A stretch of 64,000 bases of DNA from contig JASUTE010000002.1 in NCBI GenBank assembly GCA_030445745.1, positions 30,859 through 94,858 on the forward strand, written 5' to 3'. The position numbers and the translations under genes were made by a program. The notes beneath the pieces are model-generated. The model ran no database searches. It saw only the letters and a list, made by a program, of their open reading frames with translations, and was not told the DNA's origin. Numbering within the stretch: the first letter of the stretch is position 1; every line of letters begins with the position of its first letter. Origin of the DNA: Candidatus Cloacimonadota bacterium. GTDB taxonomy: Bacteria > Cloacimonadota > Cloacimonadia > Cloacimonadales > TCS61. Shown piece after piece: positions 37,323 to 52,852 of this stretch.

Positions 37323-37459
37323 TATTTCTTCTCCTAATTTATTAATTAAAGAATTAAGTAGTATTAGTAGTCTGTGTGAATATGAGTATAAGAACTTATA
37401 TTTTTTGCTAACTTCACTCTACCAACACTTTTAATTTTATTATTATTTAGTGAACAAAT

Positions 37460-37496
37460 TGTGGATAACTTGGTAATTTGTCCATATTTATCCACA
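37460..37496. promoter_or_regulatory. Pair of perfect, convergent DnaA boxes downstream of dnaA
   Basis: TGTGGATAA (37460-37468) and TTATCCACA (37488-37496), positions anchored to the ORF-track frame of 37364..37573. An imperfect box AGTGGATAT lies at about 37562-37570. Confidence 0.75.
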
Positions 37497-37569
37497 ATTT
37501 TATCAAAAAAGGCGATTATCTTAGGCTTATACACAGTAATAAACATCCTTTTATGTGAATAAGTGGATA

Positions 37570-38928
37570 TCACTTTTTAATCTCTTTAATAAGCTTTTCT
37601 ATCTGAATTCTGAAATTTTTATCCAATTTAAATTTCTCTTCCACAGTTTTTTTGGCATGCAACACTGTGGTGTGGTCTTTTCTTTTGTAATACTGTGCTA
37701 TTTCCTTCAGGGAAAGCTGGGTAATGAGTAGGTTGGAAAGATACATCGCTACTTGGCGTGGGAAGGCGATATTTTTCTTTCTGGTTTTATCGAAGATCTG
37801 AGTAGTTGTTATATTATAGGCATCACAAACCTTCTCGGTAATAGTTTCCAGATTTACTTCCTTAATTTTGTCCGAGATCATATCTACCAGAATTTCGTGA
37901 GCAATATCCACAGTTATATCTTCTGTGTCCAAATTATTGTAGGAAGCATAAGCTAAAATTCTAATAAGAGAGCCTTCTAAAGCCCGAATATTGCTAGTGA
38001 TGTGTTCTGCGATGAAATCGATAACTTTGTCTTGCAGTTCTATATTTTCAGCTTCAGCTTTTTTACGTAAAATAGCTACCCTAGTTTCAAAAACAGGGCT
38101 TTTCAAATCTGCTAATAGTCCCCATTCGAATCTGGTTATCAATCTTTTTTCCAAATCAGGGATATCTTTAGGTGGCCGATCGCTAGTTAGCACAATTTGT
38201 TTCTTTTTTTCGTATAATGAGTTAAAAGTATGGAAAAATTCCTCCTGAGTTTGCTCTTTTTTAGAAAGAAAGTGGACATCGTCTATCAAAAGTAGGTCAA
38301 AATTACGATATTTATTTCTAAAGGAGGGCATTTTGTTATTTCGAATTGCATCTATCATCTCATTGGTAAATTCTTCTGTAGTAGTGTAAAAAATATTCCT
38401 AGTACCGTTTTCTTCTATCACAAAATTTCCTACAGCTTGCATCAGATGTGTTTTTCCCATACCAGACTCGCCGTATATAAAAAGTGGATTATAGATATTA
38501 CCAGGCGATTCAGCAACAGCTAACGAAGCAGAATGGGCAAATTTATTGTTGGCTCCTATTACAAACTCACTAAAGTTGTATTTAGGGTTAAGCTTTGTGT
38601 TGTGAGTAGTAGGAAAATTATCGTTCAATGGCTGAGAAAGAGGCTTTTTTTCCTCTTTCTTAGCTTGAGTTAAACCTGTAAAAACTGTATTAAACTTCTG
38701 TTTATAAATACTGTAATAAATTTCGGAAACAAGCTCACTGTAGTTATGATTCAAATACTCTGCTATAAATTTGGAAGGTACTTTTATCTGCAGTTCGTTG
38801 TCTTGAATGTTTATAAGCTGGGTTTCAGTAAACCAAGTATTAAATCCCTGCTCACTGATATTTTGTTGAAGTGTTTCTAGGACATTTCTCCATATTTCAT
38901 TGTAATCATGCATAGTAATAGACTCCAA
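37570..38928 (-). CDS. dnaA: Chromosomal replication initiator DnaA
   Basis: 452 aa with a TTG start. Walker A GESGMGKTHL, the AAA+ box LLIDDVHFL and a C-terminal DNA-binding helix (DHTTVLHA). Confidence 0.95.
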   Translation of the reverse strand: MESITMHDYNEIWRNVLETLQQNISEQGFNTWFTETQLINIQDNELQIKVPSKFIAEYLNHNYSELVSEIYYSIYKQKFNTVFTGLTQAKKEEKKPLSQPLNDNFPTTHNTKLNPKYNFSEFVIGANNKFAHSASLAVAESPGNIYNPLFIYGESGMGKTHLMQAVGNFVIEENGTRNIFYTTTEEFTNEMIDAIRNNKMPSFRNKYRNFDLLLIDDVHFLSKKEQTQEEFFHTFNSLYEKKKQIVLTSDRPPKDIPDLEKRLITRFEWGLLADLKSPVFETRVAILRKKAEAENIELQDKVIDFIAEHITSNIRALEGSLIRILAYASYNNLDTEDITVDIAHEILVDMISDKIKEVNLETITEKVCDAYNITTTQIFDKTRKKNIAFPRQVAMYLSNLLITQLSLKEIAQYYKRKDHTTVLHAKKTVEEKFKLDKNFRIQIEKLIKEIKK

Positions 38929-39477
38929 AATTTATTTTTTTATTATAAATAATCCACAAATTCACTCTTTTCATTATATATGACACATAAATGAGCTAAT
39001 TTATTATAAAACATATAATAACAAACTCATATCTTAGCTTTATATAAGAAGTTATCCACATTCGTTAAATATAGTGTGTATAACTTTCAATCTCCGATTC
39101 ACTACGTCAAAATGCTGCTAAAATTTTATCAGTCAAGTTCAAAAAAAAGTGCTTGAAATTTGCTTTTATGCTGTTTTAAAGTGGTAATAGACTATATGTA
39201 AAAAAGTTAAATTATTTATTTTATAAATTATGATTTTGCAAAATAGAGTGCTAAGTTTCAAGAACACAGCAAATTAATGAAATTTTTTTTATTTAATAAA
39301 CTGGTTTTGCTAAAATAGCAACTATAACCAGATATTTCCCCTAAAATCTGCAATTTTCAAAAAAAAGAAAATGTTTAATGTGAAACTAGTACACGCAGTC
39401 GAGTTAAAATGTTTGACAAACAGAAGATGATAAAACTATTGGAAATGCTATAGTTAAATGTAAGTAGAGGAAAAAAG
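38929..39477. other. Candidate oriC upstream half: AT-rich spacer with DnaA boxes
   Basis: 549-bp gene-free, very AT-rich region between divergent dnaA and tyrS. It contains TAATCCACA (about 38950), a perfect TTATCCACA (about 39052-39060) and TGTGTATAA (about 39075). Long A/T runs at about 39200-39330 are DUE candidates. Confidence 0.65.
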
Positions 39478-42815: not shown

Positions 42816-43850
42816 ATGAGTGAAAAAAAGATAAATTTTGCTATCGATGTGGGTGGAACCCACAGTCGGGTTGCCGCTCAGCTTTTTGCTGGCGATAGGT
42901 TGGAACGAACCTTTCCTGTGGTTAAAAGAGCTATTTGCAGCAAAGGCGAATTACGCGATCTGGTTTTAACGCAGCTGCAAAAATATTCCTACCCTATTGG
43001 TTATGTGGTAGTTGGTTTTGCCGGCGCTGTGCTGAACCACAAAAAAGTGGATATTACCAACTGGATCTGCTCGCCTACTATTTCCAAACAAGATCTAGCC
43101 AACTGGGGCTTGCCGGAAGATAGAATTTTGTTCGTGAACGATATGGAGCTAGCCTCGTTTGGAATTTTGGCATTGCAACAAGCTGGTGAATTGAATTTAA
43201 AAGATACTGCAGCTTTGTACACTCCTGCCCAAAAAGCAGAAAATTACTTCCAGAATATGCTGATAATTGCTCCTGGAACTGGTTTGGGAACAGCTTCGGT
43301 GGTGTATACCGAAAAAAAGATGGAAGTTATTCCTTCCGAAATACAACATATGCAGGTGCCAGCGCTGGATTTGCAGCATCAGAGCATTATAGAAATTATG
43401 TTGGAAAGGGAACCAACAAAAAAATATATTAGCTTCGAAGATATGGTGTGCGGCAGGGGGTTACAAAATATTTACAGTGCTATTTGCGAATTGGAAGATA
43501 AACCAGTTTCGTTGAGTGCTGCTGCTGTTGCTCGTAAAGCTATCTATGAAGAAGATGAAAAAGCTAAAACAGCCTTGAACTACTTCTACCGTTGTGCCGG
43601 CAGAGTAGCACAAGCTTTGGCACTGTGTATGCAGCCCTACCGCGGTATTTTTCTCTGCGGAGATACCACCATTGCCAATCGAGAGTTTATTCCTAACAGC
43701 GATTTTGTGAAGGAACTGCACAACTGCCCCGTGCGCCATAAACTGTTGAACCAATTCCCTGTTTATATGGTCACAGATCCGCAAATAAACATCAAAGGCG
43801 GCTGGTGGGCTGCCAAAAATTTAAATGCACTACGAGAGTATAAAAGATAA
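42816..43850 (+). CDS. glk: Glucokinase
   Basis: 344 aa. The ATP-binding start AIDVGGTHSRVA and IAPGTGLG fit the Glk family. Confidence 0.75.
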   Translation: MSEKKINFAIDVGGTHSRVAAQLFAGDRLERTFPVVKRAICSKGELRDLVLTQLQKYSYPIGYVVVGFAGAVLNHKKVDITNWICSPTISKQDLANWGLPEDRILFVNDMELASFGILALQQAGELNLKDTAALYTPAQKAENYFQNMLIIAPGTGLGTASVVYTEKKMEVIPSEIQHMQVPALDLQHQSIIEIMLEREPTKKYISFEDMVCGRGLQNIYSAICELEDKPVSLSAAAVARKAIYEEDEKAKTALNYFYRCAGRVAQALALCMQPYRGIFLCGDTTIANREFIPNSDFVKELHNCPVRHKLLNQFPVYMVTDPQINIKGGWWAAKNLNALREYKR

Positions 43851-44604
43851 ATTTGCCAGAGCTATTACAGGTTCTGCATTTTTAAGAAAAATGTTCTATC
43901 TGGCTCTGGATATGCTTTTTCTGCGCCAATGGTACATAAAAAAAGAGATCAAGCGCAATTTTTCCCCAAAAAACAAATTGAAATTTTATGATGCCGGAGC
44001 AGGGTTTGGTCAATATTCCTGGTTTGTGCTGCAAAATTGGCCAGAAGCGCAGGTGCACGCAGTGGACTTAAAAGCGGATTACATGGATTCTTTTGTAAAA
44101 TTCGCCCAGCAGTACTTTCCAGATAAAATAAGCGCTAGGCAGGCCGATTTAACCGCTTACGTACCAGATCAACAATACGACCTGATAGTAGCCAGCGATA
44201 TTTTGGAACATATTGCCGATGACCGGCAGGTTTTAGCTAATTTTAGGAAGGCACTGAAACCAGGTGGGAAGCTAATAATTTCTACACCCAGCAATTTTGA
44301 TGAATCTGCTGAGTTCGTAGCCGAACATGTACGTCCGGGCTATAGCAAAGCCGAACTTACGGAAAAATTGCAAACAGCCGGGTTTAAAGTGAATAAGTTT
44401 ACCTTTTCCTATGGTTTTTGGGGGCATTTGTACTGGCTTTTATGCCTAAAATTTCCGCTTTCACTGGTGCAAAAGTTCAAACCTTTCCTGGTGCTGTTGC
44501 CAATTTACTATTTACCTGTTTATCCACTAGGTGCATTGTTCATGTTGTTGGATATGCTTAAAGATAACAAGCAGGGCACTGGCATTATTGTGGTGGCAGA
44601 GTAA
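43825..44604 (+). CDS. Class I SAM-dependent methyltransferase with hydrophobic C-terminal segment
   Basis: 259 aa. Motif I YDAGAGFGQY, and LKPGGKLII. The start is uncertain because it overlaps glk by 26 nt. Confidence 0.75.
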   Translation: MHYESIKDKFARAITGSAFLRKMFYLALDMLFLRQWYIKKEIKRNFSPKNKLKFYDAGAGFGQYSWFVLQNWPEAQVHAVDLKADYMDSFVKFAQQYFPDKISARQADLTAYVPDQQYDLIVASDILEHIADDRQVLANFRKALKPGGKLIISTPSNFDESAEFVAEHVRPGYSKAELTEKLQTAGFKVNKFTFSYGFWGHLYWLLCLKFPLSLVQKFKPFLVLLPIYYLPVYPLGALFMLLDMLKDNKQGTGIIVVAE

Positions 44605-44616
44605 GGTTAATTCTAA

Positions 44617-45025
44617 CAGACTTGCTTCGCAAAGTAATGTGAAGCGAGAATGACATAATCTGTTTCTATAGCTTACAAAAACATTGTCATTACGAGTTGT
44701 TCTTCTTGCAAAAACTTTTTCGAAGTAATCTATTTTTTAACATCAGGTTTAGTTACAGATTTATGCGCCGTAAGCAGATTGCTTCACCCATAAAGGGTTC
44801 GCAATGACGGTTTTTTTTGTCATTTCGACTGGAAGTAGCGAAGCTACTGGAATGGAGAAATCTCTCTTTCTCTTAAAACTCTTATGAGATCTCTCGACTT
44901 CACTTCGTTCCGCTCGAGGTGACAATTTAGTTCTCAAGAAACCCCTCTGCTCTGCTACGCAGAGCTCGCAGAGCTTCTCCCCTTAAAAAGGGGAGCAAAA
45001 AATGCTGTCATTCTGCCTGTCTAGC
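44617..45025 (+). repeat. Left long direct repeat (noncoding, hairpin-rich) bracketing the island
   Basis: Colinear with 51718-52167. It begins CAGACTTGCTTCGCAAAGTAATGTGAAGCGAGAATGACA. Internal modules include GTCATTACGAG, GCAATGACGG-T8-GTCATTTCGAC, GGAAGTAGCGAAGCTACTGG, CGAGGTGACAA and GTCATTCTGCC. Confidence 0.9.
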
Positions 45026-45450
45026 TGTTTTATCTCACCGTAGGCTTGGCTGAGGCGGAATGGGCTTGCAGCAAGGGGAAACTACAAATTGACCAGCCGT
45101 TTTAGCCGCCGTAGCTTCCATTCTCCGTAGCAGGATTACTTCGAAGGATAAATTGGCAAGTTAGAACAATCTAAATAATATACAATTCTGGAATGTTAAC
45201 TTAATTCTGTCCGTAAGGAGAGCTAATGCTAATTGAAATAAAGATTTACGATGGAATGATCTTCTATCAAGAGCAGAACAAAAGTAAATCTGGTTTGTTT
45301 GCGTCAATTTAAAAACCAAAAAAATAATTATTTTTATATTACCAAGAAATTAAATTTTTTTATTGACTAGAAACAGTTTTATTTGCAAAATATCTAAGTT
45401 AATATAAAGTGGTTTGAAAGATAGGTTATATCTTAACAGGGAGGGAAACT

Positions 45451-46500
45451 ATGAAAAAAATTATTATCATCTTATTAATTTTAAGTGCTACTATCTTAGT
45501 TGCAAATCCAATTCAACCATATGTGGATATAAAGGAACTACGTTTTACAGATTCCGGTTGGGAAATGGAATTATTTAGTGAATATATAGGAGAGGAAACT
45601 ACTACTTTGGACAGCTGTTTTATTGTTTGCAATGCAGGCAGCTCTTATGTTCAGTCCGGCATCGAGTATGAAATTGGCACTTTACTGGTAATAACTCAGG
45701 ATGATCTATTAACGCCACTTACCATCGATCCTGCCGGAGATGAAGTTAATTTATTTTTTTTAGAGAGTTATTCAAACCTAAATTTTGGAAGTTTGGAAGA
45801 TATGACGATGGCACCGACTGCAGGACAATCTCTGCAATCAGTTTGGGTATCTGAGTATCCAGGACCTTTTGGTTATCGTGTTTTTGCCAGAGATAATACA
45901 CCTTCCATAGGAGAGTGGGACGATGATACTGGCTATAGCGGCACATTCTGCGGACATGTTTATGATGCTAATATGAATCCAGTTGAAAATGTAGAGTTCG
46001 AGCTAACCCCAGATCATTATAATTTCCCAGATGTGGTAACGGATGAAGATGGTTATTTCGAGGCTGAACTATATTCTTTTAATTATAATTGCTACGTACA
46101 TTTGGCTGCTCTAGCGTCAATGGATACTCTTATCTCGGTTGCACCTGGTGAGGAAAATTATTATGAATTTGTATTTGAGGATTATGTTTATACAGATGAA
46201 GATGAAATTCCCCAGCCAGCTTCAAAATATCATCTTTCCAACTATCCCAATCCCTTTAACCCTACCACCGAAATTAGCTTTGTAGCTACAGCTAAGCAAG
46301 AAGATGCTAAAATAGTGATCTGTAATTCTCGCGGCCAAAAAATTAGAGAGCTGCAAATTTTTGTTAATAAAGGGGAAAACTCGGTGGTTTGGAATGGAAA
46401 CGATGACTCTGGTAAATCGGCTCCATCTGGTGTTTATCTTTATAAACTTGTTTCCCCAAATAAGGAACTAGCCACCAACAAAATGCTGCTGCTAAAATAG
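45451..46500 (+). CDS. Secreted protein with T9SS-type C-terminal sorting domain
   Basis: 349 aa with a signal peptide. Contains a CarboxypepD_reg-like segment (GHVYDANMNPVENVEFELT). C-terminus YPNPFNPTTEISF...GVYLYKL...KMLLLK. Confidence 0.6.
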   Translation: MKKIIIILLILSATILVANPIQPYVDIKELRFTDSGWEMELFSEYIGEETTTLDSCFIVCNAGSSYVQSGIEYEIGTLLVITQDDLLTPLTIDPAGDEVNLFFLESYSNLNFGSLEDMTMAPTAGQSLQSVWVSEYPGPFGYRVFARDNTPSIGEWDDDTGYSGTFCGHVYDANMNPVENVEFELTPDHYNFPDVVTDEDGYFEAELYSFNYNCYVHLAALASMDTLISVAPGEENYYEFVFEDYVYTDEDEIPQPASKYHLSNYPNPFNPTTEISFVATAKQEDAKIVICNSRGQKIRELQIFVNKGENSVVWNGNDDSGKSAPSGVYLYKLVSPNKELATNKMLLLK

Positions 46501-47067
46501 ATGCTAAAAGTAATTCTGCTTCTGCTTATTTCGTTCAGCCCTATTTATGCTGATGGCCTGCAATTCTTTCGGGAAGATATTACCTTTGAAATTAAGGATA
46601 ATTTCTTTATTGTAGACGGCTACTACTATTTCAAAAATAACAGTAATAACATTATCAAGGAACGTCTTTTCTATCCTTTTCCCCAAAAGGAAATTTATGG
46701 GGAAGTTGACCTGGTTTTTGCCGATGACTACAAGCATGAACAGCGTAACACCAAGCTACATATCCGGGGAAATGGTGCTTCCTTTATGGTAGAGGTGCAG
46801 CCGGATTCTATTAGCATTATGCATGTGGGCTACCGGCAAAAGATCATTTCGAATCAGGCAGAATATATTCTGGAAACTACCCAAAATTGGAAACAGTCTT
46901 TTCAGCAGGTTAATTATAGTTTGATCTTTCCCAAGAGTTACGCTTTAGATTCACTTTCTTATACACCAGATAGCTTGCAGACACAGGAAGAGAAATATAT
47001 TTTCTACTGGCATAAACAGGATTTTATGCCGCAGAGGAATTTTATAGTTAAATTTGGTAAGGAATAG
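46501..47067 (+). CDS. Hypothetical secreted protein
   Basis: 188 aa with a signal peptide. Its ATG abuts the upstream TAG stop, suggesting translational coupling. Confidence 0.4.
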   Translation: MLKVILLLLISFSPIYADGLQFFREDITFEIKDNFFIVDGYYYFKNNSNNIIKERLFYPFPQKEIYGEVDLVFADDYKHEQRNTKLHIRGNGASFMVEVQPDSISIMHVGYRQKIISNQAEYILETTQNWKQSFQQVNYSLIFPKSYALDSLSYTPDSLQTQEEKYIFYWHKQDFMPQRNFIVKFGKE

Positions 47068-47089
47068 GAGTTTTATTGGAAAAGAACAC

Positions 47090-47178
47090 GTCATTACGAG
47101 TTGTTCTTCTTGGATTAACCTTCGTGTTTAGCAAGTATAATTTCCCTCATTTCACATGGGAGTAATCTATTTTTTAAC
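47090..47178 (+). repeat. Truncated copy of the island repeat family
   Basis: GTCATTACGAGTTGTTCTTCTTG ... AGTAATCTATTTTTTAAC matches the two ends of the module at about 44686-44741, with a different filler between them. Confidence 0.7.
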
Positions 47179-47343
47179 TTTGGGTTGGCTTTTAATGAAA
47201 AAAATAACTAGTTCATTAACTACTTTTGAACTTACAGATTATTTAGTAATTTTTTGGCAAGATAATTTTTTTTAATTGACACCTCTTTTCCAATTAATTA
47301 TGTATCCAATATGAATTTAAACAGAATTAATGAAAAGAATTTA

Positions 47344-47399
47344 GGATATTATGAGGTTTGAATGTAAGGATATTATCACGCCTGTTGGCGGGATATTTT
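47344..47399 (+). repeat. Three direct repeats GGATATT(A/T)T spaced about 23-24 bp apart
   Basis: GGATATTAT at 47344 and 47368, and GGATATTTT at 47391. The last ends 4 nt before GTTGGGC (47403). Confidence 0.6.
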
Positions 47400-47403
47400 T
47401 AAG

Positions 47404-48095
47404 TTGGGCTAATACAAGGAGCAATCAGGAATGAAGAATTGGAAACCCATCAAGCTTGAAGAACTTTCTGGTGATACACAGAAAGTATACGACGTTCTCA
47501 ACACTGAGTCGGATCTGGCATGTGTGCTTATAGGGACAAGTTATCTTTCCGAATTGCTTGCGAATATGATCCAGGAAAGTTTCATAAAAAGCAACATATC
47601 TGGAAAACTTCTGGACCCTCGAGGTGGTTCGATTGGCCAATTCTCTACCAGGGCGGATCTTGCATACTGCTTAGGTCTTATCAAAAAAAGTATCTATCAA
47701 GATCTAAGCAAAATTGCTGTTATAAGAAACATGTTTGCACACAAACATGTTTCATTGGATTTCAATGATAATAATGTCAGAGACCGTTGCGGCGAATTGG
47801 AGGCGTGGCGTATTATGCAAGATAAAGATGCTGAAGAGATAGAAGAACCTTCACTTAAACAAATACACGATTTGACTCGGAATCAGTTCAATCTATCCGT
47901 AATCCTTATTGGTACACGGATTCATTTAGGTGTGTTAAGTAAAATTAACAGCCAAAATAAGAAATAAAAAGCCCAACAATGGCCTTGCACACCGAGCGGC
48001 CTTACGGCGCAGTTTTTTGAACTATAATTTTTATTGGGCTTTCTCTTTTTTTCGGCGGTTTTCGTTGCTCGCTGCCCGTCGGGTGACGGCCAGCG
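47404..48095 (+). mobile_element. Putative integron-type gene cassette carrying the HEPN gene
   Basis: It starts TTGGGC after a G (core GTTGGGC, 47403-47409). AAGGAG RBS at 47416-47421, ORF at 47431-47967. An attC-like palindrome begins with the complement GCCCAAC at 47971 and ends at the G of GTTATTT (48095). Confidence 0.5.
47431..47967 (+). CDS. HEPN-fold protein (MtlR/YggD-like) with Rx4H motif
   Basis: 178 aa, predicted all-helical. Motif IRNMFAH (R-x4-H) lies at the position typical of the HEPN active site, preceded by FSTRADLAYCLGLI. Confidence 0.55.
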   Translation: MKNWKPIKLEELSGDTQKVYDVLNTESDLACVLIGTSYLSELLANMIQESFIKSNISGKLLDPRGGSIGQFSTRADLAYCLGLIKKSIYQDLSKIAVIRNMFAHKHVSLDFNDNNVRDRCGELEAWRIMQDKDAEEIEEPSLKQIHDLTRNQFNLSVILIGTRIHLGVLSKINSQNKK

Positions 48096-48101
48096 TTATT
48101 T
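47971..48101 (+). other. attC-like imperfect palindrome (about 131 bp)
   Basis: R'' is GCCCAAC (fits RYYYAAC). The left arm AAC-AA-TGGCC-TTG-CAC-A-CCGA-G-CGG pairs with the right arm CCG-TCGG-GTG-AC-GGCCA-GC-GTT. Unpaired single bases A47991 and G47996 occur on one strand only. R' is GTTATTT (48095-48101). Confidence 0.5.
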
Positions 48102-48209
48102 TAAAAACTCGATAAGTAGAATCAAACTACTCTTTTGAGAATTATCTTTTTTTGTAATAATTTAAGACATTTCTCATGCTGCATTATTACATAGAGACTT
48201 GTGTGCTTA

Positions 48210-48620
48210 AAGCTAATTGCTTCACCCATAAAAGATCGCAAAGATAGTCACTCTGCTTGCCTAGTAGAAGCCTAGTGCGAAGGCGGAAAGTACTAGATAG
48301 GCAATAAAGCCCAGGACCTTTTTGATAAAACCGAGACCTCTCCACTTCGTTTCACTACGGTCGAGGTGACAAAGCTAATTTTTCCCTAGAGCCTCACAGT
48401 TTTTCTTTACTGTGGCAAGGTAAAACTACAACTTGTCTTGCCGTAGTGTAGCGAAGGCAGAAGTATCTAAATCTAAGCCATAGATCTCAGATGTTCTGTA
48501 GTATGTCTGCGTAAGAATTCCGCAACGTCCTGCGAGTAACCGAAGTTGGCGACCAACGGAAGCCAATTTGGGCGGAACGAAGCGTAGCCAGGTACTCGCT
48601 CTTAGGCACAGGCAAATCAT
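48210..48620 (+). repeat. Diverged colinear copy of the island repeat array
   Basis: It carries the same modules in the same order as the bracketing repeats, including ATTGCTTCACCCATAAAAGATCGCAAAGA and CGGTCGAGGTGACAAAG, plus GCCGTAGTGTAGCGAAGGCAG-type units. Sequence similarity is much lower than between the bracketing repeats. Confidence 0.6.
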
Positions 48621-48624
48621 TTTT

Positions 48625-48825
48625 CTAACCGCAACAACAATTACCTGAGTTAGTGCTCTTTTTATCCTGGCTTGTTATGTCTGGTTTTTTATCCACCTTA
48701 TCAGTATTCTCATTCTTATCATTATCATCGGGAACTTCTTCAAACTGGACGTTGCAACAGCCTCCTTTTTTTGGTTTTTCAGAAAACAATTTGCTTAAAA
48801 ATCCATTTTTCTTTTTTTCTGTCAT
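48625..48825 (-). CDS. Small Cys-cluster protein (GGCC ... GNCCCG C-terminus)
   Basis: 66 aa. A perfect SD (AAGGAGGAAG) lies 5 nt before the ATG, and the gene is 18 nt downstream of the permease stop. It has five Cys in two vicinal clusters and a charged low-complexity linker. Confidence 0.5.
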   Translation of the reverse strand: MTEKKKNGFLSKLFSEKPKKGGCCNVQFEEVPDDNDKNENTDKVDKKPDITSQDKKSTNSGNCCCG

Positions 48826-48843
48826 AACTTCCTCCTTTAGTAG

Positions 48844-49740
48844 TTACATAACAATATTGAAAACAAAGCCGCTTATAATTGCCGTTAAGAAAATAACAGT
48901 AACTATTGCAGCAACAAGTTTTATTTTAAAGATACCTGCCAACATACTCATTTCTGGTATAGCCATACCTGCTCCGCCAATAATTAAAGCGATGGCTGTG
49001 CCTATACCCATTCCTTTTCCCACAAGAGAAACTGCTATTGGAATTGCTGTTTCTGCTCTTATGTACAAAGGAATACCCACAACTGCAGCGACAGGAACAG
49101 CAAACATATTATCAGGACCAGCAATTCTTAACACAAAATCATCAGGCATATAGCCATATATACCCGCGCCTATGGCAACCCCAATCAGTAAATATAACAA
49201 AACTGGCTTTAGTGTTGACCAACCAGCAAATAATGATATTTTTACTTTATTTAAAAAAGGCAAATGCTGTCTTGTTTGTTCATTCTTTTTTACATTACCC
49301 TTTATTCGAATATTCTTTGTATATTTCTGAAATCCTGTTTTTTCAAGAATAAAACCCATAAATATGGATAGAATAAAAGCCAGTAAAAAGTAGAAGGCTG
49401 CAGATTTGACCCCCACAAGAACAGCCAGCATCCCAATAATAATAGGGTTTAATAATGGTGAAGAGATCAGGAAAGACATTGTAGCCCCAAACGGCACTTT
49501 TGCATTTAAAAATCCGACTGTCATAGGTATGGTGGAACAAGCACAAAATGGTGTCACGGCTCCGAGCATAGATCCAATAATATTTCCCAATAAACCTTTT
49601 CCGGAAAGAAATTTTTTCATCTTTTCTTCTGATATGTGCATCAATATAAATTCGATGATTGCGGTTATTCCAATAAACAAGACAACTAGCTCAATAGTTA
49701 TTTTGACAAAATACTGAAGCGTATCAATCAATGTGTTCAT
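48844..49740 (-). CDS. arsP: ArsP-like permease (PF03773-type predicted permease)
   Basis: 298 aa polytopic protein. The vicinal Cys pair in TPFCACSTIP matches ArsP-type organoarsenical efflux permeases. Confidence 0.65.
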   Translation of the reverse strand: MNTLIDTLQYFVKITIELVVLFIGITAIIEFILMHISEEKMKKFLSGKGLLGNIIGSMLGAVTPFCACSTIPMTVGFLNAKVPFGATMSFLISSPLLNPIIIGMLAVLVGVKSAAFYFLLAFILSIFMGFILEKTGFQKYTKNIRIKGNVKKNEQTRQHLPFLNKVKISLFAGWSTLKPVLLYLLIGVAIGAGIYGYMPDDFVLRIAGPDNMFAVPVAAVVGIPLYIRAETAIPIAVSLVGKGMGIGTAIALIIGGAGMAIPEMSMLAGIFKIKLVAAIVTVIFLTAIISGFVFNIVM

Positions 49741-49818
49741 GTATGCCTCCCTTTAAAATAATCATGCTTTTTATAAGGAAGACGATATGAAGCATAATAA
49801 AGACACATTTTATCAAAA

Positions 49819-50397
49819 TTATTCCAAATTTCTTAAGGGAGTACAGGTTTCTTTTACTATACAATGTAAAAAAGAGCCGTTTTTGTCATATTGGATATCA
49901 CAGCATTCAATAAATAAATCATAAAGCATTTTTCTGGCTCTTTGGATTCGCATTTTCGTCGCAGAAAGTGAAATATTTATGATTTTGGCTACCTCAGCCT
50001 GTTTTTTGTTTTCTATATCGCTAAGTAATAAGGGAATGCTATATTTATCTGGTAGTAATTTTATCATCGGAATTAAGTATTCTTTAGGGCTAAAGGTATC
50101 ATCTTTTTGCGAAAATTGTACTTCATCAATATATTCTATATAGGCTTCTATTTTATTTTTTCTTCCCCTGTAATAATCTATTAATGTGTTTCGTGTAATT
50201 TGGTATAACCAAGCTCTTAAGTTTTTTACAGGTACACTCTTTTGATGAGCTGAAATTACTTTCAGCATAACATCCTGAACTATATCTTCGGCCAAATGAA
50301 TATCTCCGGTTTTTCCGATCAGATAATTTTTTAATTGCTGATAAAAGTCTGAGACTATCATATCCAAATCACAACAATCAGTTTTTTCTTTATTCAT
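49819..50397 (-). CDS. ECF-type sigma-70 factor (SigZ-like) with Cys-rich C-terminal extension
   Basis: 192 aa. Sigma-2 (AEDIVQDVMLKV..WLYQITRN), sigma-4 HTH (QAEVAKIINISLSATKMRIQRARKML) and the tail ECCDIQYDKNGSFLHCIVKETC. Confidence 0.8.
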   Translation of the reverse strand: MNKEKTDCCDLDMIVSDFYQQLKNYLIGKTGDIHLAEDIVQDVMLKVISAHQKSVPVKNLRAWLYQITRNTLIDYYRGRKNKIEAYIEYIDEVQFSQKDDTFSPKEYLIPMIKLLPDKYSIPLLLSDIENKKQAEVAKIINISLSATKMRIQRARKMLYDLFIECCDIQYDKNGSFLHCIVKETCTPLRNLE

Positions 50398-50441
50398 CTC
50401 AAAAACCTACTATATGCTTCGATAATGTATTCATCGCTTGC

Positions 50442-50505
50442 GCCTAACGTGTGACGGTATGAAATCGTTGAGGTAAATGGGCTGCGTTCTTGTCCACCGT
50501 TGACG
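50442..50505 (-). other. attC-like site (64 bp) between arsM and the sigma gene
   Basis: The minus strand reads CGTCAAC-GG-TGGAC....GTCAC-AC-GTTAGGC. The 3' box GTTAGGC fits GTTRRRY exactly. AACG/CGTT, TG/CA and GAC/GTC pair with single unpaired bases. The central 35 nt are poorly paired. Confidence 0.35.
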
Positions 50506-50583
50506 AATTTGAAGCGAGGTAGGATGCTGAATGACCCACTTTTCCCCCAATGTTTTATAACACAGTGCGTAGTGATTTTATAC

Positions 50584-51342
50584 TCATTTTTTTATGGCTT
50601 CTAATTTAAGACTTTCTAATTTCAATCCGTTATACTGTCTTTCGCTTATCTCCTTATCTTCGGAGATAACATTCACCTCAAATCCAACCCTTTTAATCAT
50701 TTCTAAATATTCATCTCGTAAAATAGCTCCTCCAACACAACCTGCAATTAAATTAGAATCATTTCTTTGTTCAATTGTTAGCTCTTCTAATAAAACAATA
50801 TCAGAAATATATGCTCTTCCATATGTTTTTAGTACTCTATAAGCTTCCTTAAAAACGTTTTCCTTATTGGGTACTAAATTTATCACACAATTACTAATAA
50901 TCTTGTCAATCGAGCAGTCTGCCAGTGGTAATTGTTCAATATCACCGAGTTTAAATTCAACATTTTCATAATTATACTTTTTCGCATTTTCCCTCGCCTT
51001 AGATATCATTTCTTCTGTAATATCAATACCAATTACTTTTCCACTCATCCCAACCCGTTGAGCAGCAATGAATGTATCAAATCCAGCACCACTGCCTAAA
51101 TCCAGCACTACATCACCCTCATTGATTTTGACGTATGCCAAAGGATTTCCGCACCCAAGTCCAAGGTTAGATTCTGGAACCATATTTAATTCTCCAAATG
51201 AGTAACCAATACTTTTTGAGATATCCTCATTCGATAATAATGAACCACAGCAAGAAGAATCTGAACAACAACTTGAACTTCCACTCATAGCGATTGAACC
51301 ATATTTTTCTTGTATTATTCTTGTCACCTTTTTTTTATCCAT
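50584..51342 (-). CDS. arsM: Arsenite S-adenosylmethionine methyltransferase
   Basis: 252 aa. N-terminal Cys clusters SSSCCSDSSCCG, SAM motif VLDLGSGAGFD, and conserved Cys contexts SNCVINL and AGCVGGA. Confidence 0.8.
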   Translation of the reverse strand: MDKKKVTRIIQEKYGSIAMSGSSSCCSDSSCCGSLLSNEDISKSIGYSFGELNMVPESNLGLGCGNPLAYVKINEGDVVLDLGSGAGFDTFIAAQRVGMSGKVIGIDITEEMISKARENAKKYNYENVEFKLGDIEQLPLADCSIDKIISNCVINLVPNKENVFKEAYRVLKTYGRAYISDIVLLEELTIEQRNDSNLIAGCVGGAILRDEYLEMIKRVGFEVNVISEDKEISERQYNGLKLESLKLEAIKK

Positions 51343-51377
51343 TTTTAATCCTTTCGATTCTTTAATTTGAGTTCCCT

Positions 51378-51455
51378 CTAAAAACTCGATTTTAATTCAA
51401 TTATTTCTCTGAATAAGTTTACTAATTCTCCGGTTCTTTTTCTTCTCCTTGGCAT
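51378..51455 (-). CDS. Possible 25-aa leader or mini-ORF upstream of arsM
   Basis: My own translation: MPRRRKRTGELVNLFREIIELKSSF. SD AGGGGGAAAAG lies 4 nt before the ATG. Too short for the ORF track. Confidence 0.2.
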   Translation of the reverse strand: MPRRRKRTGELVNLFREIIELKSSF

Positions 51456-51717
51456 GATCTTTTCCCCCTTATAATAATATCTAAATTTCAGTATTTTATA
51501 GGAAGAAACCTATTTAACCTTTCACCATAACCTTTAAAAGAATATAATTTATATCTAATTTTTCGTCAGCAAGCTGTCAAACAGAAAATAATATTTATAT
51601 TGCACAAGGTTATTTGGTTAGCTTTGGTGTAAGTTGTGTGTGCTAAAAACCATATTGGCAGGCGGCATTATGTGGCTCGCTTGGCTCGTTACCATCAAAT
51701 TCTGCTACCTGATTTGT

Positions 51718-52167
51718 CAGACTTGCTTTGCAAAGTAATGTGAAGCGAGAATGACAAAAGCTGTTTCTATAGCTTACAAAAACATTGTCATTACGAGTTG
51801 TTCTTCTTGCAAAAACTTTTTCGAAGTAATCTGTTTTTCACATCAGGTTTAGTTACAGATTTATGCGCTGTAAGCGCATTGCTTCACCCATAAAGGGTTC
51901 GCAATGACGGTTTTTTTTTGTCATTTCGACTGGAAGTAGCGAAGCTACTGGAATGGAGAAATCTCTTTTTCTCTTAAAACTCTTATGAGATCTCTCGACT
52001 TCACTTCGTTCCGCTCGAGATGACAATTCAGTTCTCAAGAACCCCCTCTGCTCTGCTACGCTTGCCTTATGGAATGCAGCTATGCTGCCGGCTTTGCCGA
52101 TTCCACTAGGGCAGAGCTTTTCCCCTTAAAATGGGAGCCAAAAATGCGGTCATTCTGCCTGCCTAGC
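51718..52167 (+). repeat. Right long direct repeat bracketing the island
   Basis: Colinear with 44617-45025. It has a 1-nt deletion near 51835, T9 versus T8 at about 51910, and an extra insert of about 50 bp (52062-52110). Confidence 0.9.
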
Positions 52168-52291
52168 CGTAGCCTTTGGCGAAGGCTGGAGGCAAACCCC
52201 GAACTCGTTCGACGAAGAATCTAATTCTGAGACACAAAGCCCAGATGTTTCGTCTAAAATTGCCAAGATGAATTCCTCAATATGACGGGCT

Positions 52292-52852
52292 TTATAATTT
52301 TTCAGAAAGTTTTTCCGCCACCGCTTTTGGCACCAAGCCTGCCAGGTTTTCGCCTTTTTTCAGTTTTTGGCGTATTTGGCTGGCAGAAACAGCAGTAGGC
52401 GGCATCTTAAAGAAAGTGAAATTTCCTTTTAATTCGGTTTTTTGCCTATAGCCGGGGCGGTTAGCCACGGCAAAGTTAACGTTTTGCTGCAACCACGGCC
52501 AGTTGTGCCATTGGGGTAGTTTAGGCAGAATATCACAGCCAATAATGAAGTAGAACTGGTGTTGCGGATATTTTTGCTGCAATTTTTTAATTAGTTGGTC
52601 GGTGTAGCTGGGTTTGTTACCAGTATTATCGGCATAGCTTATCTTAAAATTAGGATAGTTCTGCAAAGCTGCTTGCAGTAGTTCACAGCGAAATGGGTAG
52701 GAAAGTTTATCTTCATTTGTTTTCAGGGGATTATTTTGCGAGGGAACGAACCAGATTTGCTCTAACTGCAATTTTTGCAAAGCAGCCTGGGCCAGAGCCA
52801 AATGTCCGTTGTGTACCGGGTTAAAAGAACCTCCCAAAAGTCCAATTTTCAT
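52292..52852 (-). CDS. nadD: Nicotinate-nucleotide adenylyltransferase
   Basis: 186 aa. GGSFNPVHNGH. Confidence 0.9.
   Translation of the reverse strand: MKIGLLGGSFNPVHNGHLALAQAALQKLQLEQIWFVPSQNNPLKTNEDKLSYPFRCELLQAALQNYPNFKISYADNTGNKPSYTDQLIKKLQQKYPQHQFYFIIGCDILPKLPQWHNWPWLQQNVNFAVANRPGYRQKTELKGNFTFFKMPPTAVSASQIRQKLKKGENLAGLVPKAVAEKLSEKL

Follow-up and report, generated by a model that had tools for sequence, protein, structure and literature searches.

The locus between the methyltransferase gene and nadD

We analysed a window of 64,000 nucleotides from the genome of an uncultured Candidatus Cloacimonadota bacterium (GCA_030445745.1, contig JASUTE010000002.1, positions 30,859 to 94,858), and in it the 7.7 kb that separate a gene for a class I S-adenosylmethionine (SAM) methyltransferase from nadD. 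This region, the island, holds genes for a type IX secretion system (T9SS) C-terminal-domain protein, a DUF4424-like protein and an MtlR protein with the HEPN fold and, on the opposite strand, a Cys-rich 66-aa open reading frame (ORF) and genes for an ArsP-type permease, a SigZ-like extracytoplasmic function (ECF) sigma factor and ArsM. The spacers of the island contain arrays of short hairpins (Table 1). The gene calls of an earlier note on this DNA, made from the letters alone, were confirmed. The note had also seen no integrase, transposase or tRNA, and this was confirmed, as no tRNA was found in the window and neither an integrase nor a transposase was present among the predicted genes scanned over its 64 kb.

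Other Cloacimonadota have nadD next to the methyltransferase gene, no more than 85 bp away (L030), or with one small gene in between (L026), which indicates that the window carries a real insertion. The gene order is phylum-wide, with p274-GreA-M18 peptidase-BamD-nadD converging on methyltransferase-Glk-GlnA-M50. The best match of nadD in species-representative genomes has 49% identity. The part of the insertion that is swapped between strains, cassette A, has a GC content of 29-36% versus about 41-43% in the flanking core genes.

At least three gene contents were found in the population between flanks that are 99.2-100% identical across the variants. Variant A, that of the window and of contigs L002 and L012-L015, comprises the MtlR/HEPN gene, a middle array, the Cys-rich ORF and the genes for ArsP, the ECF sigma factor and ArsM. 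Variant B (L022, L024, L230, L232 and L001) carries in its place a cassette of about 11 kb encoding a 179-aa protein, a type III restriction enzyme, a Schlafen/AlbA_2 protein, a 900-aa Ppl-like ATPase, a type III methyltransferase (E = 1.6e-206) and a YCII protein. Variant C (L364, L366) diverges 10 nt past the nadD stop codon and has, counted from that stop, 153 unique bp, the middle array block, another 238 unique bp and the hsdR gene of a type I system. Its block copy corresponds to window positions 48094-48445 at 93-94% identity and carries a 60-nt nested insertion, the two unique segments show no similarity to the island spacers, and the right array is absent from both contigs. Variants A and B coexist in samples 3300035541 (L012 vs L230) and 3300035531 (L014 vs L232). 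The breakpoints between them lie at 47061, within the last codons of the DUF4424-like gene, and at about 51550, some 165 bp from the right array, and neither falls inside a hairpin unit. The right array block is common to A and B (L001, L002, L009, L239) and the middle block to A and C. In some strains an insertion sequence (IS) of the IS3 family lies between arsM and the right array (L009 4658-5641, L012 4686-4805, L239 4745-4842, L013), recognizable by an HTH_Tnp_1 orfA, TG…CA ends and a 3-bp ACC target duplication.

The convergent junction of the methyltransferase gene and nadD is thus a hotspot of insertion and variation in this bacterium, as the earlier note had supposed; the comparison of module content that it had proposed yielded at least three contents within the population, and array blocks persisted beside differing genes. 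By analogy, the hotspot may be compared to a replacement genomic island or to a minimal mobile element of Neisseria, as it offers alternative nonhomologous contents between the same flanks and no mobility genes in the window.

Several side observations concern the gene content. In cassette B (L230 5018-12468, L001 11528-13963), mod and res are split by the Ppl-like ATPase gene (PADLOC E = 5e-53) and a gene for a Schlafen/AlbA_2-HATPase_c_4 protein, and the cassette ends in a YCII-domain gene on one side and the unannotated 179-aa gene on the other. The minus-strand operon at 48625-51342 of cassette A is an unusual combination of an ArsM-type methyltransferase, a SigZ-like ECF sigma factor, an ArsP/SO_0444-type permease and the 66-aa ORF. 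The latter has a CC motif and a C-terminal CCCG (MTEKKKNGF…GGCCNV…SGNCCCG) and is called as a gene in several independent contigs. The variable island starts about 6 kb from the dnaA region. There, dnaA (37570-38928, minus strand) is bordered by the two long spacers with the highest AT content in the window (24-25% GC; region 37323-39477), and this region is probably the replication origin.

Hairpin arrays at the module boundaries

The island contains two long arrays, left and right, which are colinear direct repeats in the same orientation. Positions 44617-44960 and 51718-52061 align over 345 columns with 95.9% identity (E = 5e-161), and a repeat search, blastn and MAFFT were concordant. The copies then differ in length, with 49 nt in the right array (52062-52110) versus 7 nt in the left (44961-44967), and distal to this difference 44968-45025 matches 52111-52167 with 89.7% identity over 58 columns. 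The two 0.4-kb direct repeats are two copies of one array, and the long repeat pair with an extra segment in the right copy, aligned by hand in the earlier note, was reproduced by all three methods.

The remaining copies proved to be of a different kind than had been proposed. A presumed truncated copy at 47090-47178 is real but consists of just one unit, of which the first 23 nt (47090-47112) and the last 18 nt (47161-47178) are identical to unit b while the interior is longer and different. In the middle region, 48187-48232 resembles the long copies at 76-78% identity over 46 nt, 17 nt of it exact, and 48333-48372 at 80% over 40 nt; a stretch resembling unit f at 48247-48264 does not follow the order of the long copies, and no similarity to them was found in this region past 48372. 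Since the matches are confined to these two segments and the f-like stretch is out of order, the partial similarity stands, but the middle block is not the diverged colinear copy that had been placed at about 48210-48620; it is a different mosaic of the same unit family.

A unit is 33-46 nt long and combines a tag, YGTCA, a closing stem of 4-5 bp, an interior hairpin that varies between units and a tail, TCT(C). Across units the closing stem co-varies on its two sides (TTAC/GTAA, TTGC/GCAA, TTTC/GAAA and YCTC/GAGR, the last as TCTC/GAGA and CCTC/GAGG); an internal loop follows the stem, the variable interior ranges from 5 to 60 nt and the tail is CTC/TCT. The tag is present in all window units, and the orientation switches from one unit to the next: a(-) b(+) c(-) d(+) e(-) f(+). 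The structured pattern GTCA-x4-GA … A-rc(x4)-TCT, in which rc denotes the reverse complement, retrieved 8 units in the 64-kb window, all in island spacers, and two control patterns retrieved 0. This pattern uses a 4-nt stem, as the fifth stem base is unpaired and a 5-nt definition therefore fails. The arrays fold much more stably than shuffled sequence (z = -3.7 as DNA and -4.5 as RNA), and unit c, followed by T8-9, resembles an intrinsic terminator downstream of the methyltransferase gene. In length, closing-stem covariation and folding, the units fit the imperfect palindromes of 20-50 nt known as repetitive extragenic palindromic (REP) sequences.

All window units sit at module boundaries. 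The island spacers that hold them measure 846, 363, 876 and 949 bp at 30-41% GC in an otherwise very compact window, and noncoding hairpin-array DNA makes up about 3 kb of the 7.7 kb. Each array is traversed into unique DNA on both sides by independent JGI and Logan contigs (the left by L021 and L227-L232, the middle by L012-L015, the right by L001, L002, L009 and L239), and such contigs tile the whole island (L227, L015, L012, L002). As a side observation, most short-read contigs of the population end within the arrays (L004-L008, L233-L236; window 52067-52146 and 44743-44775), some of them at positions without any 31-mer common to the left and right copies, which may mean that the genome has more copies elsewhere or that the arrays are polymorphic for single units. 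The hairpin arrays thus interrupt short-read assemblies precisely at variable loci.

A sister species with 84% nucleotide identity (GCA_034189845.1) gives an indication of the relative age of the parts. Its T9SS gene lies beside the methyltransferase gene without a left array (L225), with about 60 bp at the place of the roughly 640 bp of array in the window; the missing segment extends from 44629 to about 45260. No array was found directly past its nadD either, where the approximately 390 bp covered (L237) are plain AT-rich DNA. As the T9SS gene is beside the methyltransferase gene without an array, the left array is a later arrival beside an older module, and the 7.7 kb are consequently not one element. 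The description of the locus as a single island bracketed by its own repeats was therefore abandoned. Two further features of the sister species are mentioned here: its T9SS gene is called as three fragments of 141, 66 and 155 aa (L225 4996-6046), which could reflect a pseudogene or sequencing errors, and past its nadD a terminal ORF fragment (L237 3340-3518) resembles by eye the TNxIE…GF C-terminus of IS256/ISL3-type transposases.

The arrays also change within the population. Strains differ at the level of units by the 49-nt hairpin, by a 70-nt d-like unit (L003) and by the 60-nt nested insertion of variant C. The loop of the extra d-like unit, present in the right array of some strains (L003 10927-10939 region; L365 19565-19601), is GCCGTAGGC and not GTAGCGAAGCTAC, and because of this difference it was more likely inserted from another copy than produced by a simple tandem duplication. 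The two left-array alleles show 14 differences in their first 97 columns, at 12 of which the window allele matches the right copy, and only 1 difference over the remaining approximately 320 columns common to the right copy. In the window strain, a tract of about 90 bp in the left copy has been converted to the sequence of the right copy, and the long copies do undergo recombination between themselves. It is plausible that the left and right copies could also delete the entire block, an event for which the earlier note had suggested looking; among the approximately 12 contigs that cross an array, however, not one joins the methyltransferase gene to nadD via a hybrid array.

Table 1. Features of the variable locus and its flanks, in window coordinates
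Feature	Position	Strand	Remarks
Class I SAM methyltransferase	43825..44604	+	conserved left flank; NCBI protein MDN5353580.1
Left hairpin-repeat array	44617..45028	+	repeat search, blastn, MAFFT, covariance model; hairpin-rich DNA on to ~45160
Left unit a	44617-44655	-	
Left unit b	44686-44731	+	
Left unit c	44776-44808	-	
Left unit d	44819-44863	+	
Left unit e	44887-44923	-	
Left array, two plain hairpins	~44944-44995		
Left unit f	45007-45027	+	
T9SS C-terminal-domain protein	45451-46500	+	in all strains seen; also in sister species
DUF4424-like protein	46501-47067	+	in all strains seen
Swappable cassette A	47062..51550		replaced by ~11-kb cassette elsewhere
Single b-type unit	47090..47178	+	directly past DUF4424-like gene
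MtlR (HEPN fold)	47431-47967	+	cassette A
Middle array block	48094..48445	+	begins with AT-rich 90 bp
Middle c-like unit	48187-48232		
Middle f-like unit	~48247-48290		
Middle e-like unit	48334-48370	-	
Cys-rich 66-aa ORF	48625-48825	-	cassette A
ArsP-type permease	48844-49740	-	cassette A
SigZ-like ECF sigma factor	49819-50397	-	cassette A
ArsM	50584-51342	-	cassette A
IS3-family insertion site, polymorphic	51508..51510		ACC target duplication; IS absent from window
Spacer, ~165 bp	51556..51717		accompanies right array in variants A and B
Right hairpin-repeat array	51718..52170	+	left-array unit order; further unit-like hairpins up to nadD at 52291
Right unit a	51718-51756		
Right unit b	51787-51832		
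Right unit c	~51878-51909		
Right unit d	51920-51964		
Right unit e	51988-52024		
Right array, 49-nt extra hairpin	52062-52110		
Right unit f	~52149-52170		
nadD	52292..52852	-	conserved right flank

The unit family in other genomes and its known counterparts

The units were also sought in public collections with a generic pattern, GTCATTGCGAG-N5-35-GAAGCAATCTC, whose 22 specified bases would give a few matches by chance according to our own rough estimate, the collection size not being given. Related units were found in at least 120 unrelated metagenome contigs and in at least 120 IMG/VR viral contigs. Among the matches listed, 140 from metagenome loci resolved into 102 distinct units with differing small-palindrome interiors that are compensatory, and the position before the tag (-1) is a pyrimidine in 96 of the 102, the flanks being otherwise random. 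Inverted pairs of units, 10-100 bp apart, are frequent in these genomes too. Most metagenomic units lie outside ORFs, and their strand is not clearly biased with respect to the adjoining genes (32 opposite, 21 same). According to Pfam, the 150 ORFs neighbouring the listed units belong to unrelated housekeeping or ordinary metabolic genes, with no Y1 transposase and no enrichment of transposases. Of the 13 window hits (E < 10) of a covariance model built from the metagenomic units alone, 10 fell within the two long arrays, and the best four had E = 0.013-0.089.

The earlier note had held that a repeat scattered over hundreds of unrelated intergenic sites without association to variable gene content would be only a generic REP-like element. 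At the level of the unit family this is what we observed, whereas for the specific 345-bp or 0.4-kb composite no second locus was found in the collections searched. A spurious 61-aa ORF within the right array, used as a protein probe for other copies, had no homologue. Rfam gave no relevant family for the window (gathering threshold), the island (E-value threshold) or 15 of the metagenome loci, and no printed match to the unit family sequences was found in the searchable literature.

Two observations on the wider family are added. In the viral contigs (L240-L359, e.g., L255 and L307), the generic unit is common, with 3-5 copies on one strand in some, and among the matches listed roughly one copy in two overlaps an ORF call of at least 100 aa. 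PD-(D/E)XK proteins of the PDDEXK_3 type (PF13366), a small family with many scattered paralogues, are encoded by two of the 150 ORFs next to metagenomic units, and a linkage between this family and the hairpin units is possible.

The architecture, which the earlier note could not assign to a described class, matches that of clusters of REP sequences or bacterial interspersed mosaic elements (BIMEs) and, above all, that of the NIMEs (Neisseria intergenic mosaic elements) found around minimal mobile elements. NIMEs consist of dRS3 hairpins and RS blocks, are found near surface-protein genes and flank minimal mobile elements with strain-specific restriction-modification (R-M) genes (PMC1797815); a role of these arrays in recombination was proposed in 2000-2007 (PMC1797815). 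The present locus is alike in having long noncoding arrays of short tagged hairpins amid spacer blocks, a unit number that is dynamic between strains, a position near surface-protein and strain-specific R-M genes, conserved flanks, and neither integrase nor transposase. Half of the dRS3 copies represent the 28-nt NTS, CGTCATTCCCGCGMAVGCGGGAATCYRG, which is cut as single-stranded DNA by SsnA, a GIY-YIG nuclease of 94 aa that lowers the integration of NTS-bearing DNA (PMC11893778). The NTS, CGTCA-TTCCCGCG…CGGGAA-TCY, and our units, YGTCA-TTGCGAG…GCAA-TCTC, have the frame YGTCATT…AATC in common. They differ in stem sequence and in the longer, bulged and variable interior of the units described here, and their hosts belong to the Betaproteobacteria and the Cloacimonadota, respectively. 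The NTS/dRS3 hairpin cut by SsnA is the nearest design precedent for the spread of the units. A motif prefilter for small GIY-YIG genes near units gave one convincing case in 240 loci, among the matches listed. In that contig (L133 1000-2050), a single-domain GIY-YIG gene of about 95 aa (Pfam E = 3e-17) lies between the NTS-like hairpins CGTCATTCCTGCGAATGCAGGAATCCAG and TGTCATTCCCGCGGAAGCGGGAATCCAG, about 600 bp from an inverted pair of TTGCGAG-type units, so that both hairpin subfamilies coexist in one genome beside an ssn-like gene. We regard this arrangement as a lead connecting the units with an Ssn-type enzyme, not as proof.

Similarities to two other palindrome families are also evident. 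CGTC-tagged REPs, which include TGTC variants and form inverted dimers, have an A-T stem start and a short tail and are reported from Bacteroidetes and Chlorobi, with no dedicated transposase known (PMC3733652); their stems are 8-9 bp and their loops 4-5 nt long, their tail is CCA, and large clusters of them are rare (Di Nocera et al. 2013, PMC3733652). Read as YGTC-ATTNC…GNAAT-CT(C), our unit has the same CGTC/TGTC tag, A-T stem start and short unpaired 3' tail, and inverted dimers occur as well; it differs by its 4-5-bp closing stem, internal loop, variable second hairpin and CTC/TCT tail. The REP, BIME and REPIN sequences of E. coli and Pseudomonas are likewise extragenic imperfect palindromes with a conserved end tag, alternating mosaic clusters and polymorphic presence of units, but their tag is GTAG instead of YGTCA (PMC3116915, PMC3337134), and REPINs do not typically show an entire 0.4-kb cluster in duplicate at 96% identity.

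As for the gene content, replacement-type flexible genomic islands and defence hotspots between core genes are established, e.g., by the work of Rodriguez-Valera and colleagues. The locus resembles them in its alternative nonhomologous blocks at one position in coexisting strains, its conserved flanks and its lack of mobility genes; the blocks here are type III R-M with the Ppl-like gene, type I R-M, and the HEPN gene with the metal/arsenic-type operon. The approximately 3 kb of noncoding hairpin arrays in 7.7 kb are unusual both for such islands and for this compact genome.

Other known systems were considered and rejected. Integrons and clusters of attC sites lacking integron integrases (CALINs) share the separation of gene modules by hairpin-forming repeats, but the 64 kb contain no intI, and the units end in YGTCA/TCT and not in the attC R''/R' cores, RYYYAAC/GTTRRRY. 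The modules, moreover, are found in both orientations, have promoters of their own with AT-rich DNA upstream of each, and are separated by several units and not by one. An integrative island would be expected to show a recombinase, a tRNA and short att repeats, none of which was seen, the repeats being 0.4-kb hairpin arrays; in addition, the sister species has no left array despite its adjacent T9SS gene and no array past nadD. A template/variable pair as in diversity-generating retroelements was rejected, as no reverse transcriptase is present and the repeats do not code for protein.

Origin and role of the arrays

We consider it probable that the locus combines tagged-hairpin mosaic arrays of the REP/BIME or NIME kind with a strain-variable, replacement-type hotspot, in which the arrays are passengers and the cassettes are swapped by homologous recombination. 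In such a scheme the array would have been duplicated as a block, and the absence of arrays at the corresponding positions of the sister species suggests that they arose after the two had split. Whole gene blocks would be replaced through homologous recombination with incoming DNA, the homology being provided by conserved flanking segments that may be coding, such as the DUF4424-like gene and nadD, or noncoding, such as the array blocks, and IS insertion would add to the change in content. The arrays may accumulate where long non-essential spacers tolerate them, possibly offering portable homology as well. We thus infer that they are passengers and possible homology arms and not dedicated recombination sites.

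Several results weigh against this interpretation. Within the 64-kb window and some 16 kb of adjacent DNA obtained from this population, copies of the units were found solely at this locus, and genome-wide dispersal is a defining trait of REP-like families. The window, however, has only four other intergenic spacers above 120 bp, all at 24-26% GC. No cognate enzyme is encoded: neither a REP-associated tyrosine transposase (RAYT) of the IS200/IS605 type among the predicted window genes scanned against Pfam, nor a small GIY-YIG gene of the Ssn type in the window or the fetched population contigs. The published SRM pattern, HGTCWYN(0-2)YYVSBRHN(0-5)WNVSBRGN(0-2)RNCYNB, has 0 matches in the window and 0 in 135 metagenomic units, among the matches listed. 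Specific probes were equally negative, with 0 matches for the 23-mer of unit b in the metagenome contigs (among which the source samples evidently are not), 0 for the 30-mer of the c-d junction in the viral contigs and none for the whole left array in phage and plasmid records (blastn, distant mode). Finally, the genes that adjoin an array block change from variant to variant, as would also be predicted if the arrays took an active part in the exchange of cassettes.

Such an active role had been favoured in the earlier note, according to which the repeats mediate the gain and loss of modules as in a cassette array. The arrays would then be recombination substrates, either by homology or through a site-specific enzyme, and the modules would be shuffled through them. 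The persistence of the right block in A and B and of the middle block in A and C beside different genes agrees with this, as do the conversion tract between the long copies, the varying unit content of the arrays, the position of every unit seen at a module boundary and the published precedent from Neisseria (PMC1797815). Both A/B breakpoints, however, lie outside units, the left junction of the B cassette has no unit of the family, the T9SS gene of the sister species has no left array beside it, the approximately 12 array-spanning contigs include no left × right deletion, and the 64 kb encode no recombinase. The middle block is only 93-94% identical between A and C, compared with more than 99% in the flanks, which speaks against a recent exchange through it, and in Neisseria the NTS repeats lower the integration of incoming DNA when tested (PMC11893778). 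We therefore regard array-driven exchange as unlikely, although the blocks that persist beside differing genes are a part of the proposal that stands. Equally doubtful, in our judgement, is a related idea in which the arrays are cis-acting sites of a hairpin-specific enzyme, an Ssn-like nuclease or a recombinase, that steers the exchange of defence and surface-protein cassettes in the Fibrobacteres-Chlorobi-Bacteroidetes (FCB) group; the arrays could then do in a distant, uncultured phylum what the NTS/NIME system does in Neisseria, and entire 0.4-kb arrays would be copied blockwise to new junctions of cassettes.

Three further explanations carry still less weight. The arrays may be retained for a function in RNA or chromatin, as multi-hairpin terminators, insulators or mRNA stabilisers between acquired transcription units, in which case their similarity would reflect selection and not mobility, a view compatible with the passenger reading. 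Their folding, their location at the 3' ends of genes and the terminator-like unit c point in this direction, and such roles have been hypothesised for REPs (PMC3733652); we nevertheless find it rather improbable, as the right copy keeps the same orientation although its adjacent genes are on the other strand, the units elsewhere show no clear strand bias, Rfam yields no family and the sister species copes without arrays. A Campbell-type integration, in which circular DNA with one array recombined with a chromosomal array and left flanking direct repeats, would account for long direct repeats around accessory DNA in the absence of an integrase and for the adjacency of nadD and the methyltransferase gene in related genomes. 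This seems very improbable, because the T9SS and methyltransferase genes are already neighbours in the sister species and the left array was therefore inserted in situ, because variant C has no right array, and because the DNA between the repeats is itself patchy in age and in GC content. That the arrays are an artefact of metagenome assembly, in which a repeat was collapsed or duplicated or sequences were joined chimerically, might be suspected from the many short-read contigs that end in them; its likelihood is negligible, since each array is traversed, with the same unique DNA on either side, in several assemblies made independently from different samples.

As REP/BIME/NIME-like arrays in a replacement-type hotspot, the locus is of a known kind, met here in the Cloacimonadota, a phylum for which no report was found. 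NIME- and BIME-like arrays, so far studied mainly in Proteobacteria, thus occur in this phylum as well, and if the passenger reading is true, the junction is a clean natural hotspot of cassette swapping in an uncultured lineage of the anaerobic-digester type. The main interest of the locus lies in its parallel to Neisseria and in a widespread, apparently unnamed hairpin family that shares the NTS frame and can be tested for an Ssn-type partner, which would allow examination of whether Ssn-type or other hairpin-specific enzymes shape horizontal transfer beyond Neisseria.

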